DNA of 64,000 nt from Raja brachyura (Eukaryota). How positions within the stretch are numbered: position 1 is the stretch's first letter; the number at the start of each line of letters is the position of its first letter. Below the pieces are notes generated by a model. The model ran no database searches. It had not been told where the DNA came from and saw nothing but the letters and a program-made list of their open reading frames with translations. Of this stretch, positions 3,779 through 31,361 are shown piece after piece. The translations under genes and the position numbers were made by a program. The stretch spans positions 177,692,001 through 177,756,000 of the forward strand of contig OY740781.1 of the NCBI GenBank assembly GCA_963514005.1, written 5' to 3'.

Positions 3779-3920
3779 CTGAAAAGTTTTCAACCAATCC
3801 TGAAGTTCTGGAGGGGGCTGGATAGATGTGATCCGGCGTCGCTGTTGCCCTTGCCCATTTGCTGCTCTCAGATCACCAAAGGTGGTGGGTGTTGCCGAAC
3901 ATGGAACCAGCCCAGCGGTG
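3779..3920 (-). CDS. FBXW7: FBXW7 second shared coding exon (142 nt), leading into the dimerisation domain
   Basis: Minus strand: ...ttttgctggcag|C ACC GCT GGG CTG GTT CCA TGT ... AAA ACT TTT CAG|gttagc, translating as (S)TAGLVPCSATPTTFGDLRAANGQGQQRRRITSIQPPPELQDWLKTFQ. This is nearly identical to recalled vertebrate FBXW7 (STTGLVPCSATPTTFGDLRAANGQGQQRRRITSVQPPTGLQEWLKMFQ). AG/GT boundaries are canonical and the phase fits the preceding 83-nt exon. Confidence 0.97.
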
Positions 3921-5145: not shown

Positions 5146-5625
5146 TAGAAACATAGAAAATAGGTGCAGGAGGAGGCCATTTGGCCCTTCGAACCAGCAC
5201 CGCCATTTATTGTGATCATGGCTGATCATCCACAATCAGTAACCGTGCCTGCCTTCTCCCCATATCCCTTGATTCCGCTAGTCCCTGGAGCTCTATCTAA
5301 CTCTCTTTTAAATTAATCCAGTGAATTGGCCTGATCTGCCTTCTGTGGCAGAGAATTCCACAAATTCACAACTCTCTGGGTGAAAACGTTTTTCTCATCT
5401 CAGTTTTTAATGGCCTCCCCTTTATTCTTAGACTGTGACCCCTGGTTCTGGACTCCCCCAACATTGGGAACATTTTTACGGCATCCAACTTGTCCAGTCC
5501 TTTTATAATTTTGTATGTTTCTATAAGATCCCCTCTCATCCATCTAAATTCCAGTGAATGCAAGCCCAGTCTTTCCAATCTTTCCTCATATGACTGTCCC
5601 GCCATCCCAGCGATTAACCTCATGA
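5146..5625 (-). mobile_element. CR1 LINE 3' end (young subfamily)
   Basis: ORF 5366-5623 (YEERLERLGLHSLEFRWMRGDLIETYKIIKGLD...RTRGHSLRIKG) is the CR1 ORF2 C-terminus; ends in aaacatag tail repeats. Confidence 0.9.
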
Positions 5626-7123
5626 ATATAGTTTAAACCAAACCTCTAATGGGCTTTAATGGCAGTTATGATAAATACGAATATAAATTATCCTGTTCTC
5701 TTTGCTGCACCTATTCAGAGCTCACCTGGTCAGGGCTACACTCAGTTTAATGACCCGTTTGACATGCTCATGCCAAAAACGTTTTTTGAGAGGGGATGGC
5801 GAAGAAACACAAATAAATAGCCCTGTTAAGAGTGGAAGATCTGAAAATCAGGTCATTGCGGAGGCACCTGTGATCACACTAAATGCTCACATTAGCAGCA
5901 GCACCAATTTGAAGTTTATGCTGCACAGCACTAGGGGGAAGATAGATCCACAGAGTCGTACAGCACGGAAACAACTTGTCTATGCCAACTAAGATGCCCA
6001 TCTAAACTAATCCCGTTTGCCTGCATTGGTCTCATATTTATTTAAACCATTACTATTTTAAGCTGATTCAATGGATATTAAATACCTATTCTTTTGAATT
6101 ATATCCAATACTTCCAGTGGTGATTAATATTGTCCCTCGAGTCATAAGCAATTCAAATAAACTTGGTTTGTTATTTTCAGACAATAACTGCAATATACCC
6201 ATTGATTTAAAAAAACCCCCCATCATTTTAACTTGTGTATTGAAGCAGAATGAAGTGACTGGTATTTCTGAAAGAGGTAACAAACTGTTTTATTCATTTA
6301 TATGAAATCTCTTTAATACCTCAGAATTACATTATAATTCATTAACATTTTATTATACTGAAGTGTGTGTTGATGATCACTGAATGTTGTCACTATAAGA
6401 AATTTTGTCAGTACAGGAAACATGTTAACAATTACCAATTAAAATAAAATCTAAAATAATCTTGAAAATTCCAATTTAACTGTAAATAAAGAACAAATAA
6501 GCTTGCACAATTCAAACAAAAGGGTAGAGTTCATGAAGATCCTACTCATCATTTTATGCAATACATATATCATATATATTTAATCAAAGCTTCACAGTTA
6601 AGTATTTTTAAGAGCGTGACACATGAGAACATGACAGGTTAAAATGTTACCACATTAACAAATTATTTTATTTGCCAATAATGAAAACATTACTATGGAT
6701 CTGAAAATCAAATGATGGAAACTGCCGCCCGCAAGGCTGGATCTTGTATCTATGGAATAGAATTTGTTGCCATGTCAGTAGCAGTTGTTTGTTAATGGAT
6801 GTGATGATTTCTACCCTGTGGCCCTATACTGCTAGTTTATAATTGGGCAAAAATTAGTCCAATTTTAATGCTTTGGATTTTAGGCCAAGAACCTGTCTCA
6901 TCACAGCCTCTCTTTATATGGCAACAAGGAACCTAGACAACATGCAATAGTCCTGGCATAATACACCAAATGTTTGGGTTATGCATTTAATGCACATTCC
7001 TTTTTAAAACTCACATCTATCAGTATCAGCTGAGGTCAGTTATTTTCATAAACAGGAAAAATGGAAGTATGCAGTATACAATTTCTGCTAGTAAGCCTTG
7101 ATAACAAAGACATCTTAAAATAC

Positions 7124-7206
7124 CTTTTGTAGTCTGAGCCTTTGCAAGGTTTCTTTCCTGAAGAGAAAGACCGGACCTCAGGGCCAGGGTCCAATTTTCT
7201 CTTCAT
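7124..7206 (-). CDS. FBXW7: FBXW7 first shared coding exon (83 nt)
   Basis: Minus strand: ctatttcttgtttcag|ATG AAG AGA AAA TTG GAC CCT ... GAC TAC AAA AG|gtattt, translating as MKRKLDPGPEVRSFSSGKKPCKGSDYK(S). Matches recalled MKRKLDHGSEVRSFSLGKKPCKVSEYTS. Phase-0 acceptor with a polypyrimidine tract; phase-2 donor joins the 3920 exon in frame. Confidence 0.97.
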
Positions 7207-8803
7207 CTGAAACAAGAAATAGAAGAGATTTGAAAAAAATATTGAAAACTATTTTTTGATTCATTCAAGCCAATTATGTGCGACCACAAATAAACAATTA
7301 CAATAATAATGAAAGCTAATATAATGTTTTCTGGTTTTAAAAGGAATAACAATCACACAGTAGTTTAATAATCTTCATCATGGACTTAGTGCAGGTCAGT
7401 GTAGCTCAGCATTGAACATAAAGGTTGTTAATGCTTATCACTTAAACTTTTCAATGTTTTCAAAGTAGATTTGTGCCTTTTACACAAATTTATGTTTAAA
7501 AGACTGAATCAGAAAGAAGTTAAGCAACTAAACTGAGTGGAATAAATTATGCTCACTGGTATTTTGCAGGGCATGAGAAATTTAGCTTTGCTCGAGTACC
7601 ATAGACTTAAAAAAAATCTAATGGAAATGTAAAACAAGGCAGTTTTAAATATGCAGTTAGGTATTGTTCTGGGAATGATTTTGCATATGCAATCTAGGAT
7701 AGTGGGGAAAAAATGTTAGTGCACACCAAGCTTCCACAAAACAACCACAGAATAGAAATTCATTTTTAATCAAAATATTCAGAAAGGCAGGGGGAATCCT
7801 TGTCAACGGGCATCAGGAACTATGTTTTGTTAAATGCTTCACAGCATTTAACATGGGTTACATTTATTGCATGGATCTTTGGCCTTCTACATTTTTTTTA
7901 TTGAATTAGGCAAATTATTCCGAGTAAATTATCATGAAATAGAACTGTGACCTTGCCCGGGAAATAAATTGAAATAGGTGCTATTGTTGATATTTTTAAA
8001 CCAGATTATTCAATCATTGCATGTTTATGCCTGACCACAGATCCAAATCGTGTGGCATAAAGTCGGCACAGTGTGTACAAAATACAGCAGGGGAATGAGT
8101 CATTCAGTCGGCTAAAACACGTAGACACAGGATGATGCCAACCATCCAGTTGCATTTTTTTCCCTGTTAAAATGAATATATCCTGCTTACTTGGTTGATT
8201 TTTTTTTGTCCCCTCAAGAAACAGGCATTTATACTTCTTTAACCATATACTGGTTTGACTAGTACAATGGAGAAGAAAATTACTAACAAGGTTTGTGGTT
8301 TTAGTATTAAATTACATTGGTATATGTCGTGATGGTCCAATCTCGAAATGTGAAAAAGACTGCAACATAAAGTGTTAGTCATCCATAACTCTAATGTGAA
8401 AGAATTTAAGATTTGCTACACCTTATTCTTGCTTGCTTTTCCTCCTACACAGTGCAGCAGAAAACCTAACATTGCATAGGACAATTATAATCAATAAATT
8501 CTGCATGATTTGATCTAATTGGTAATTTATTGCTTGTCTTACATAAAACAGAACATGATCTACATTGCCTAGCATGATAATTGTCACTGCGACTTCGCCA
8601 CCTTCCATCCAATGACGTGAATATTTGCAGTTATTTGCGAAGATGCGACAGTTTTTTTTTGAGCTGCTATAAAGTCATAGGTCGACCAACTATTTAAACA
8701 TATATCAAAGTCACAGAAAATTAGACACTATCTTGACAGTAAACATTTTCGTAAACCTATTCAATGCTAAAATTCACGTTGAAATGAAGATGATGCCTCT
8801 ATT

Positions 8804-8824
8804 GGGGGGGGGGGGGGGGGGGGG
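8804..8824. repeat. Poly-G tract (21 nt)
   Basis: Homopolymer read directly, in the intron between the beta exon and the first shared exon. Confidence 0.9.
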
Positions 8825-9198
8825 TAGGGTGCAGGAGGAAGGCAACAAATGGTGTTATCATAAAAAACCCAAATCCCCAAATCAATTCAACTCACTCGCA
8901 GGATTACAATGGCAACACTCTTAGCCTTATTCCGTTTTAAAAAAAATAATTAACTGCAGTTATTGGGTAACAGGTAGTAAGATTTCAATAATTTCTAGTG
9001 GACGATTTCCACGGATTACTAAATAATTATTACTGGAGACTTCATATTATTGAAGTGGAGGAAAGATGCCTTTCCTTCAATCAACTAACATTTATTTCGT
9101 GCCGGTAAGTTATTGCCAGTGATTTCCAAAGAACAGAATAATCTGGTGACACTTAAAATGACCGCATTCAGCACAACATTGCATTCGCACCAACTTAC

Positions 9199-9237
9199 TT
9201 TAAAAAAGATCATTTTTAAAGTGCCGTAGAAACCCAT
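9199..9237 (-). CDS. FBXW7: FBXW7 beta-isoform first exon, coding part (MGFYGTLKMIFFK)
   Basis: Minus strand acc ATG GGT TTC TAC GGC ACT TTA AAA ATG ATC TTT TTT AAA|gtaagt. Strong Kozak context (accATGG), consensus donor, phase 0 into the 7206 exon. Matches the recalled end of the mammalian beta exon (MGFYGTLKMIFYK). Confidence 0.93.
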
Positions 9238-9250
9238 GGTGAGTGTTGGT

Positions 9251-9331
9251 TCAGATCCTTGAGAGGTCGGCTGATGGTTGCGGAGACAGTGCTGCTTCAG
9301 GTAGAGGGTGCGATGTCCCCAACATGGACAT
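9251..9331 (-). other. Upstream ORF (26 aa, MSMLGTSHPLPEAALSPQPSADLSRI*) in the beta leader
   Basis: ATG at 9331, TGA at 9253-9251. Ends 13 nt before the main beta ATG at 9237 and is out of frame with it. Relevant only if transcription starts upstream of 9331. Confidence 0.5.
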
Positions 9332-9345
9332 GCTCAGGCACGTCA
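9326..9345. promoter_or_regulatory. p53-family response element (two adjacent half-sites, zero spacer)
   Basis: GGACATGCTC (perfect RRRCWWGYYY) directly followed by AGGCACGTCA (2 mismatches), about 90 nt 5' of the beta ATG. Mammalian FBXW7-beta is an established p53 target. Confidence 0.75.
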
Positions 9346-9380
9346 AAGAATGGGCGAGCTTACACTACAACTAAGCAAAA

Positions 9381-9400
9381 CCTCCTCCTCCTCCTCCTCC
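9381..9400. repeat. (CCT)n / (GGA)n trinucleotide microsatellite
   Basis: cctcctcctcctcctcctcc read directly; a (CA)n tract follows at about 9473-9488. Confidence 0.9.
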
Positions 9401-10599
9401 AGAGCCAATGCAGTTCGCCGGTAATTCTCACACGACAAGCTGTACTTGGGCTTCGGAGGACAAAACAGAACAAACACACACACACACAAAAAGAGGGAGG
9501 GGGAAGCTAGCCTTGGAGAATCGGCTGTCCAATAAACAGATTCTGCTGTGCCTAACAGATGGATGAAACTGCACTGTGTTCCACCCCCTGCCTTGTAAGA
9601 AAGAAATGGCTCGACCCAGCTAGCAACAATGTGAGCTGCACGTCAATTAGATGAACAAAGCCCCAGGGAGCCTGCAAGCTGAGGGCGAGCGAAACGGAAG
9701 GAGAATTGCAGCCGGTTTCACATGATTAAATTCAACTCATTTTCCTCCCACCCTCCCGGTTTGCATTCTGCGGGCAAGTGGAATGTGTGGAATTATTGAT
9801 ACATCCGAGGATTCTGGCGTCGGTGCTCAATGAATCCCATTACTCTTTTTTTTTTGGAAAAGGGACTTTTCTCTCACCATTCACTTTGCGGTGTGTATGT
9901 CGATGCTCACACAGACCAAGCCTCTCCGGCACCCACCCTCTTGTCCTTCACCGTGTTTGAATAATTTCACCTGCCTTTTCTCACAACAAACATCATGCAG
10001 GTGGTATGTGGGCCAGAACTCAGGGTTTTCCATCTGCCAATGATCATTCATTGCCATAGCAATTGAAGCCGCGGTGGCAGAGGTCGGCCACCTACTTTGG
10101 AGTTAGTTTTGCTTCAACCCCTGCGCTCTTGGAACCCCTGAGAGGTAACTCCCAACCTCTGCAGAAATGAGCGGAATGCCAAGCATGCAGAGGTCACGTT
10201 AGTTCTTTGAAGCATCTATGACCCCCTTGACGTTAACCTTCTGGTATGCAATTCTTGATCAACCGCGCCAAGATTTGAGAATGGTGGGCTGAGATTTTCA
10301 GAGCCAGACAAGAAGAACCTTTGCAAAAACAGGTGTCGACGTGATCCTTAACTGTTCAAAATCAGTTTCACACCCAATTCCATTCTGCCCTCCAATGAAC
10401 AGACCAGTGATAGCCCTTCTAAAGTGTCAATCACCTGCATACCTTTTCATTTTCCAACATAGGAAATGTGACTGTACATTGACATTGCACAAGGTTGGTC
10501 AGAAACTGAATTAGCATAAACAGAAAACGTAACTTATATTGTACAAAGGTGGTGTTACTCTTTAAGAACATATAAGAGATAGCAGCAGAAGTAGACCAA

Positions 10600-10775
10600 T
10601 CTATCTGAAGAAGGGTCCCCACATGTAACAGCATCTATCCATGTTCTCCAGAGACGCTGCCTGACCCACTGAACTAATCCAGCACTCTGATAACATAGTC
10701 ATGCTGCCTGACTCGCTGAGTTACTTCACCATTTTGTGTCTTTTATGTAATTGAACATCTGCAGTTCCTTGTGCT
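10600..10775 (+). mobile_element. Penelope-like pLTR copies (partial tandem)
   Basis: tctgaagaagggtccc...ctatccatgttctccagagacgctgcctgaccc and a second gctgcctgactcgctgagttac...catctgcagttcc. Confidence 0.7.
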
Positions 10776-19278: not shown

Positions 19279-20811
19279 ATGAGGCCAAAGTTGTGCCAAT
19301 GAAAGTCAAAGAAACCATTATGAGACTGAGAAACAAGAATAAAACTGTTAGGGACATCAGCCAAACCTTCGGCTAACCCAAAATCAACGGTTTGGACATC
19401 ATTAAGAAGAAAGAGAGCACTGGTGAGCTTACTAATCGCAAAGCGACTGGCATGCCAAGGAAGACCTCCACAGCTGATGACAGAATTCTCTCTTTAACAA
19501 AGAAAAATCCTCCAGCACCTGTCCGACAGATAGGGTTGCCAACTGTCCCGTATTAGCCGGGACATCCCGTATTTTGGGCTAAATTGGTTTGACCCATACG
19601 GAACCGCCCTTGTCCTGTGTTTCACTGCTACTGGGTCGAGGGGACTGTTGGGTCGGAGCGCCGCATCCGGCCCCGCCTCACCCGTCCCGACGTAGCCCAT
19701 GAAGGGCAGCAGCAGCGCCTCACCAGCGGCCCCATCAGTCGGCAGCACAGTCAGCTGTCCAACCTTCGGACCTTCGCTTACCGCTGACACCATCACCCCT
19801 CCTTCTCATGGCCGGTCATCGGTTCATGAGTTGAATTGGGGGCCGGACTTTGCGTCTTCAGGCCAAAAGTCTTCAGCTGGCCCACCGGCTGGGCTTTGAG
19901 TGCAGTCCAGCACCCGGGCGAACTCATCATTCACCCAGCCACCGCCGAGTCGGTCAACAAATTGCTGTCGGGAATTTGTCCTGTATTTTGATCTTTTGTC
20001 CCTTTTTTGGGAGTGAGAAAGTTGGCAACCTTACCGACAGATTCGAAACATTCTTCAGGAGTCAGGTGTGGTTTTGTCAATGATCAATGTCCACAGAAGA
20101 CTTCATGAACATAAATACAGAGGCTACACTGCAAGATGCAAACCACTGGTTAGCTGCAAAAATAGGAATGTCAGGTTACACTTTGCCAAGAAGAGCGACC
20201 ACAGTTCTGGAAAAAGGTCTTGTGGACAGATGAGACGAAGATTAACTTATATCAGAGTGATGGCAAAAGCAAAGTATGGAGGAGAGAAGGAACTGCCCAA
20301 GATCTAAAGCATACCACCTCATCTGTGAAACACAGTGGTGGGGGTGTTATGGCCTGGGCATGTATGGCTGCTGAAGGTACTGGCTCACTTATCTTCATTG
20401 ATGATACTACTGCTGATGGTAGTAGCATAATCAATTCTGAAGTGTATAGACACATCCTATCTGCTCAAGTTCAAACAAATGCCTCAAAACTCATTTGCTG
20501 GTGGTTCATTCTACAGCAAGCCAATGATCCCAAACATACTGCTAAAACAACAAGAGTTTTTCAAAGCTAAAAAATGGTAAATTCTTGAGTGACCAAGTCA
20601 ATAACCCAATCAAAACCTAATTGAGCATGCCTTTTATATGCTGAAGAGAAAACTGAAGGGGACTAGCGCCCAAAACAAGCATAAGCTAAAGAAGGCAGCA
20701 ATACAGGCCTGGCAGAGCATCACTAGAGAAGACATCCAGCAACTGGTGATGTCCATGAATCATAGACTTCAAGCAGTCATTGCATGCAAAGGATATGCAA
20801 CAAAATACTAA
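19279..20811 (+). pseudogene. Tc1 DD34E transposase pseudogene
   Basis: WTDETKINLYQSDG, VKHSGGGVMAWAC, QQANDPKH (the catalytic D of QQDND reads A) and terminal GYATKY*. Frameshifts, stops and the hAT insertion disrupt it. Confidence 0.92.
19531..20033. mobile_element. Non-autonomous hAT element nested in the Tc1
   Basis: TIRs tagggttgccaac / gttggcaacctta. Exact 8-bp TSD ccgacaga at 19523-19530 and 20034-20041. Subterminal tgtccc(g)tatt repeats. Confidence 0.93.
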
Positions 20812-30452: not shown

Positions 30453-31361
30453 TGGTGAAATGTAACATCTCCAAGTTTGCAGATGAGTGGCAGTGTGAGC
30501 TGCGAGGAGGATGTTATGAGGCTGCAGGGTGATTTGGATAGGTTGGGTGAGTGGATAGTTTCAGTATAATGTGGATAAATGTGAGGTTATCCACTTTGTT
30601 GGCAAGAACAAGATGGCAGATTATTATATGAATGGTGTCAGATCAGGAAAAGGGGAGGTGCTAGGAGACTTGTACATCAGTCACTGAAAGTAAGCATGCA
30701 GGTACAGCACGCAGTGAAGAATGCAAATGGCTTGTTGGCCTTCACAGCAATAGGATTTGATTATAGGAGCAAGGAGGTCCTACTGCAGTTGTATAAGGCC
30801 CTGGTGAGACCACACCTAGAGTGTTAGTTTTGGTCTCCTAATGTGTGCAGTTTTGGTCTCCTAATTTGAGGGTAGCGCAAGTTCACCAGGTTAATTCCTG
30901 GGATGGTGGAACTGACATATGTTGTAAGAATGGGTCGACTGGACTTACAGTATATTCACTGGAATTTAGAAGAATGAGAGGGGATCTTATAGAAACATAT
31001 AAAATTCTTAAGGGATTGGACAGGCTAGATGCAGGAAACATGTTCCCGATGTTGGGAGAATCCAGAACCAGGGGTCACAGTTTAAGAATAAGGGGTAGGC
31101 CATTTAGGACTGAAATGAGGACAAACTTTTTCACCCAGAAAGTGTGAATTTGTGGAATTCTCTGCCACAAAAGGCAGTGGAGGCCAATTCATTGGATTCA
31201 AGAGAGAGTTAGATATAGCTCTTAGGGCTAAGTGAATCAAGGGATATGGGGAAAAAGCAGGAACAAGTTACTGATTCTATATGATCAGCCATGATCATAT
31301 TGAATGGCGGTGCTGGCTCGAAGGGCCAAATAGCCTACTCCTGCACCTACTTTCTATGTTT
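30453..31361 (+). mobile_element. CR1 LINE RT C-terminus and 3' end; an opposite-strand CR1 fragment follows at about 31365-31572
   Basis: CNISKFAD, KCEVIHF, LYKALVRPHLE, VQFWSP, RRMRGDLIETYKILKGLD, CR1 3' UTR. Confidence 0.9.

Follow-up and report, generated by a model that had tools for sequence, protein, structure and literature searches.

A p53-family response element in the first exon of skate FBXW7-beta matches its human counterpart and probably dates to the jawed-vertebrate ancestor

The closest described system is human FBXW7-beta (hCDC4b), whose p53 site was reportedly placed in exon 1b in the original report by Kimura in 2003. The supplement of Riege et al. 2020 (PMC7735755) lists a "primary p53+p63RE" at chr4:152352621-152352640, under a p63 peak that is assigned to NM_018315 and backed by 16 of 20 datasets. 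The accessible part of a second p53 supplement, searched with the same human coordinates, holds no entry for this element. The available sections of Fischer 2019 (PMC6755996) record p53 peaks close to FBXW7 in 20 of 28 human datasets: 19 fall between -209 and -383, with a median of -305, and the other is at 649. Mouse Fbxw7 has p53 peaks in 9 of 9 datasets, six of them at +185 to +248. The same source includes FBXW7 in an 86-gene core of p53 targets common to mouse and human, reports that about 9-13% of alignable p53 sites keep p53 binding between these two species, and predicts the persistence of a few promoter and 5'-UTR p53 sites across vertebrates. Only 11-12 p63 sites are given as common to human and zebrafish (PMC7200997). 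Sites of the p53 family are thus replaced quickly in evolution.

In zebrafish, fbxw7 is among 137 p53-induced genes shared with mouse (Wang et al. 2025, PMC12145846, as far as its text was available). After irradiation, its log2FC is 0.97 with p53 and -0.19 (not significant) in p53 nulls, a gene-level induction given for no particular isoform or site. The gene is described there as a p21-independent arrest effector whose loss partly relieves arrest. The accessible main text of another zebrafish p53-target paper (PMC5007497) does not name fbxw7, and among the rows examined of a zebrafish p63 supplement the gene appears in two ortholog lists only. The shared target sets (PMC6755996, PMC12145846) present FBXW7 as a deeply conserved p53 target, as does the present analysis, but they work with gene-level or averaged conservation scores and, in the portions available, do not trace the element to cartilaginous fish. 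A literature search, which covered papers outside subscription, likewise found none among the top matches listed that traced the element to cartilaginous fish or noted a start codon in its core.

A second comparison is provided by the p53 element in the PPM1D 5'-UTR (Rossi et al. 2008, PMC2602757). Like that of the skate, it sits inside a 5' leader close to a CRE. At PPM1D, p53 shifts initiation to downstream start sites. As the available sections of that paper describe it, the element is conserved among mammals only, the chicken promoter being divergent, the CRE is separate from the p53 element, and no start-codon role is described.

The 5' part of FBXW7 is found on the minus strand of the window, the whole 64-kb stretch of skate DNA that was analyzed:

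FBXW7-beta first exon: 9199..9721, minus strand; spliced at 9199 in 4 of 4 sequencing runs, with the X4 contig spanning 9199-9721
Beta exon coding part: 9199..9237, minus strand; 13 codons, main ATG with A at -3 and G at +4
FBXW7 common exon 2: 7124..7206, minus strand; located by tblastn and spliced contigs, ends loose
FBXW7 common exon 3: 3779..3920, minus strand; located by exon search and tblastn

The exon 3 search returned FBXW7 of cartilaginous fish as top matches, and the peptide of exons 2-3 equals that of a Rhinoraja longicauda record but is distinct from 13 other records compared, which makes a skate the most likely source of the window. The beta coding residues match the Cetorhinus beta isoform P0003 at 13 of 13 positions, and a GT donor directly follows the coding part. 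Relatives are represented by four of the 20 sequencing runs listed, none of them recorded as RNA, with one run each from organisms A, B, C and D. In all four, a contig covers 9326-9345 and then exits at 9199 into exon 2, arguing that the site lies within the spliced beta leader and, because the contigs are spliced, that the runs are RNA. The 13-residue beta start and this splice to the common exon bear out the identification of the FBXW7-beta first exon by an earlier, sequence-only reading of the window. Since the contigs agree with the window for 30 letters at their exon-2 ends, where they encode a variant found in all cartilaginous records compared, organisms A-D are presumably cartilaginous fish. 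The contigs are uninformative on start sites or levels: their ends at 9359 and 9482 were not taken as start sites, and 9721 marks the reach of the relative's longest contig (X4) rather than a mapped start site, the true 5' end lying there or beyond. A tblastn search of the window, including the 54 kb upstream (9722-64000), revealed no alpha or gamma first exon; these either lie further out or are too diverged for tblastn. A Pfam search of four frames of the beta exon yielded 0 families.

Within this exon lie the site and a motif that overlaps it:

p53-family response element GGACATGCTC-AGGCACGTCA: 9326..9345, no strand assigned; two half-sites without spacer, 18/20 to the doubled consensus
TGACGTG: 9339..9345, minus strand; created where the weaker half-site departs from the consensus at two bases; shared with human

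A recount agrees with the original description of one perfect and one 8/10 half-site without a spacer (10/10 at 9326-9335 and 8/10 at 9336-9345). The core bases C4, G7, C14 and G17, positions whose importance is noted in PMC7735755, are all intact, and this is the sole match to keep them among the nine in the window with at most 3 mismatches; the weaker half-site keeps C4 and G7 and lacks the CWWG core. The site is about 380 nt from the 5' end of the X4 contig, within the first exon, and its letters, searched in literature full text, matched 0 papers. At the scale of the whole window the motif alone is unremarkable. Two p53-consensus matches with at most 2 mismatches were observed vs 2.34 expected, and a core-intact match of that quality arises in 36 of 100 shuffles of the 64-kb window (P 0.36); in shuffles of the 523-nt beta exon a core-intact match arises in about 1% of 5000. 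The window shuffles, and the fact that the flanks are homologous as well, would suit a chance match or a neutral leftover. That explanation is nevertheless largely refuted, and we give it very little credence, in view of the 18/18 identity to a human element that has ChIP support and lies in the orthologous exon between diverged flanks. It is this identity that raises the motif above chance.

The human string was located in the supplement of Riege et al. by chr4 coordinate prefixes. It is printed there offset from the skate 20-mer, for which reason the exact 20-mer is found in neither of the two supplements. Comparison of 19 printed human letters shows window positions 9328-9345 to be the same at 18/18 site positions; the comparison covers 9328-9345, the second site base being deduced from a serine codon and the first lying outside it. 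The first human-skate difference is at 9346, which is outside the site and a synonymous position. The human letters encode human beta residues 31-37 (record P0023), which places the human element in exon 1b, and the peptide LTCLSMS that had been named as human is found at exactly these residues. On this sequence evidence, 9326-9345 is the ortholog of the known human FBXW7-beta element. The two share the exon, the orientation, 18/18 bases and a similar distance from the 5' end. They differ in setting, the human element lying in annotated coding sequence (codons 31-37) and that of the skate in a 5' leader with an out-of-frame uORF, and in that occupancy has been seen only in mammals.

The derived position of the human element is about 328 nt from the start site (about +320 to +340). 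The median of the p53 peaks is -305 vs -328 computed for the element, if the same start site and sign are assumed. On that assumption, and mapped by distance, 19 of the 28 p53 datasets would mark the human element, in agreement with an overlap with human p53 ChIP peaks, which the sequence-only reading had proposed as a check. The bound human element also proves to be the same sequence and not one elsewhere, since the element under the p63 peak is the one with 18/18 identity.

The sequence-only reading had further raised the idea that conservation peaks on these 20 bp irrespective of frame, and between skate and human this is the case. With the flanks scored by best-case back-translation of the human peptide, so that mismatch counts are minima, there are 0 mismatches in the site, at least 16/48 in the next 16 codons downstream and, after a 1-nt shift, at least 7/24 in the 8 codons upstream (Fisher P 0.0025 for site vs flanks). 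All five of the five checkable wobble bases in the site are common to the two species. Similarity to the human peptide does not end with the site but goes on for a further 16 codons (13 of 23 residues identical; P 0.00025 against random DNA), so by sequence the flanks are homologous to human but diverged. Among cartilaginous relatives, the peak is less sharp. Organisms A, B and C have no listed change within the 20-bp site, but the contrast of 0/20 vs 19/168 changed positions is not significant (P 0.105), and 35 of 119 windows of 20 nt are as invariant as the site; for organism D the position is displayed for one of six differences, and the other five could fall in the site. The site is at the center of a longer unchanged run, whose length has a P of about 0.02:

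Invariant block: 9312..9365, no strand assigned; 54 nt, no substitution listed for A, B or C, centered on the site

The DNA-level comparison comprises skate, the cartilaginous relatives A-D and human; fish and amphibian protein records stop short of the leader, and a search of metagenome and viral contigs for vertebrate DNA around the beta exon gave 0 matches. For amniotes the evidence is at the protein level. Across 11 named amniotes, invariant protein columns number 5/7 in the site, 34/37 downstream of it and 9/26 in the first 26 residues. The residues encoded by the site differ among 44 long-form records only by L/P (9) and T/A (9), and these changes can keep the consensus Y and R, although transitions are also the commonest changes anyway. 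Bird records, read back from protein, imply that the purine run of the weaker half-site has been lost, and in bird genomic frames no more than the end of that half-site survives.

Both non-consensus bases of the site are conserved between skate and human, and for this p53 binding alone is an insufficient explanation. The TGACGTG that they form at 9339..9345 is, we assume, a CRE/ATF-like motif. It recurs at 9639 and 8613, with three of the five window copies within 1.1 kb and two in the exon vs 0.04 expected (a post hoc count), and the 54-nt invariant block exceeds the site. The conserved feature might then be some other DNA or RNA element (CRE/ATF-like, HIF-like, core-promoter or 5'-UTR) in a slowly evolving leader, with p53 a later co-option in bony vertebrates. 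This is unlikely in our judgment: the perfect half-site, which such factors do not need, is equally conserved, a rat-type T-to-A change (deduced from protein) would break TGACG and keep the p53 purine, and Rfam gave no family at gathering score, the four weak matches over 8400-10600 falling far under their thresholds.

The preferred reading is that the skate carries the ortholog of the human exon-1b p53/p63 element and that its DNA sequence has been selected since the jawed-vertebrate ancestor. We consider this probable, and the stress-response link is, from the sequence comparison, probably older than the split of sharks and bony vertebrates. It seems equally probable that in the skate, too, a p53-family tetramer would bind the element and induce the beta promoter under stress as in mammals. 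Following the known p53 pathway, stress-stabilized p53 would sit as a tetramer on both half-sites and increase transcription from the beta promoter, and more beta would in turn mean more SCF substrate receptor degrading cyclin E, MYC and Notch. The original proposal of a p53-to-FBXW7-beta link dating from the jawed-vertebrate ancestor is supported as regards the element, by 18/18 human identity in the same exon. As regards the protein it was too specific, because the human site is also a p63 site and the ancestral reader need not have been p53.

Indeed, p63 or p73 could have been the old selected reader, in developmental or germ-line control of FBXW7-beta, with p53 secondary. This is compatible with the preferred reading, and we hold it possible but doubtful. 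The human element is classed "primary p53+p63RE" with a p63 peak in 16 of 20 datasets, and its weaker half-site has no CWWG, which p63 is described as tolerating (PMC7735755). All three family members are present in the elephant shark, and between lamprey and human the DNA-binding domains of p63 and p73 are more conserved than that of p53 (PMC4743058, available text). However, induction in zebrafish and mouse is gone in p53 nulls (PMC12145846), most p53 sites are also p63-bound and expression of p53 targets is largely independent of p63 (PMC7735755), and the supplement rows examined do not establish a p63 peak at zebrafish fbxw7.

The gene-strand peptide LTCLSMS begins at 9346, and its frame, which stops at 9253-9251, is offset by 109 nt from that of the FBXW7 ATG at 9237. 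That this frame is unjoined to FBXW7 was correctly noted from the window and applies to cartilaginous relatives as well: organisms A, C and D have no indel between 9199 and 9375, the count resting on these three runs since 3 of 9 gap letters in organism B are not displayed. The frameshift is therefore real, and assembly error as its source was rejected. Under the preferred reading, the element in cartilaginous fish belongs to the 5' leader, the protein begins at 9237, and the obligatory CATG core supplies the only upstream ATGs of an otherwise ATG-free leader and so opens a short uORF:

26-codon uORF: 9251..9331, minus strand; start codon inside the CATG of the perfect half-site, A at -3

A second in-frame ATG lies at 9325, and the uORF ends 13 nt before the main ATG. 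Apart from those at 9331 and 9325, the 484-nt leader has no ATG, and the 390 nt upstream of the uORF contain none vs 3.9 expected (P 0.007). By the listed changes, the uORF ATG and stop are unchanged in A, B and C, and A, C and D have no indel in it. Changes in relatives are mostly non-synonymous, about 4 of 11 being synonymous vs 27% expected (small numbers), and the excess of synonymous change that marks a conserved peptide was not found among these relatives.

The history of the frame can be read from protein records, which are automatic annotations gathered by searches that favored in-frame forms. The beta start is present in 118 of 321 fetched proteins, 51 of which begin at the short start and 67 of which are extended. 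Named short-start records come from sharks, skates, teleosts, coelacanth, lungfish, frogs, salamanders and one bird, Sturnus. In 64 of the 67 extended records the site ATG is in frame with FBXW7, 33, 39 or 40 codons before the short start (those named are from mammals, crocodilians, turtles, a gecko and birds); the remaining three are teleosts with unrelated extensions. Other frames of the site occur in none of the 321 proteins. Parsimony over the beta records argues that the short start is ancestral and that the fusion took place in the amniote stem. On the preferred reading, a frame change in the amniote lineage would have linked the site ATG to the FBXW7 frame, to judge from the annotations. 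The earlier suggestion that mammals came to translate through the binding site is right as far as the mammalian frame goes, but this is not peculiar to mammals, since crocodilians, turtles, a gecko and birds do so too. In birds and the gecko, most records begin at the ATG of the site. Amniote beta varies in, or lacks, its annotated first Met and hydrophobic segment (birds, gecko and one further record; P0130, P0133, P0142, P0145, P0170), while what follows the site ATG is strongly kept. Nine residues of the human hydrophobic segment match a GT-rich tract of the skate (9482-9456), a match that was dismissed as low-complexity.

The site might instead be conserved for translation, its ATG being kept as a uORF start or as the start of an ancestral longer protein that was lost in cartilaginous fish by a frameshift. 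The A at -3 and the ATG-free 390 nt upstream fit such a constraint, as do the human-peptide similarity 16 codons past the site (P 0.00025), the strong retention of downstream codons in amniotes and the whole-codon indels of birds (33, 39, 40). Yet the ATG is preceded by 15 of the 20 conserved bases, the proportion of synonymous uORF changes gives no clear sign of peptide selection, the short start is ancestral by parsimony with the three extended teleost records unrelated, and the whole-codon pattern is partly an ascertainment effect. We judge this account quite improbable. The initial view that the conservation is unlikely to be for protein draws support from the unjoined frame, with the qualification that the site ATG itself may be under translational constraint.

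Much more tentatively than the preferred reading, it can be suggested that the p53 site seeded a protein N-terminus, the CATG having served as an upstream start since the jawed-vertebrate ancestor and having later been fused to FBXW7. The uORF would damp translation of long FBXW7-beta leaders, and p53 would relieve it by moving initiation downstream as at PPM1D; by analogy, such a shift at FBXW7-beta would drop the uORF start. The frame change in the amniote stem would then have fused the uORF, so that the conserved beta N-terminus would start inside the p53 site, and the annotated membrane segment further upstream would be a variable appendage that bird and gecko records lack.

The short beta start itself (9220-9237, minus strand) has Gly at position 2 and Thr at position 6 in the beta records fetched. 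We take these residues to fit the N-myristoylation consensus, and in non-amniotes beta may carry a lipid anchor in place of the membrane segment ascribed to the amniote form. A literature search on beta-isoform myristoylation or start choice found nothing relevant among the papers listed.

Several other features of the window were recorded. The same 9-mer with TGACGTG occurs at 9638-9646 and 9338-9346, 300 nt apart and both in the beta exon. In the intron after this exon, a CCAAT box adjoins TGACGTG at 8609-8619, and the 200-nt stretch around it has a CpG o/e of 1.05 vs 0.42 for the window; 8609-8619 is a possible intronic regulatory element. Frame fragments at 5369-5632, 30842-31144 and about 19900-20800 presumably represent remnants of LINE reverse transcriptase and Tc1-type transposase.

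Skate and human diverged roughly 450 million years ago, and the element at 9326-9345 is real and unusually old. The link between p53 and FBXW7 was already known, and what is new here is its age and anatomy, with no new mechanism. A site unchanged between skate and human would place FBXW7-beta among the oldest established connections of the vertebrate p53-family network, and its age fits the role of zebrafish fbxw7 as a p21-independent arrest effector (PMC12145846). For editing in fish and mouse it supplies a single, precisely defined element, and the ATG within it raises a testable doubt as to where the amniote beta protein starts.
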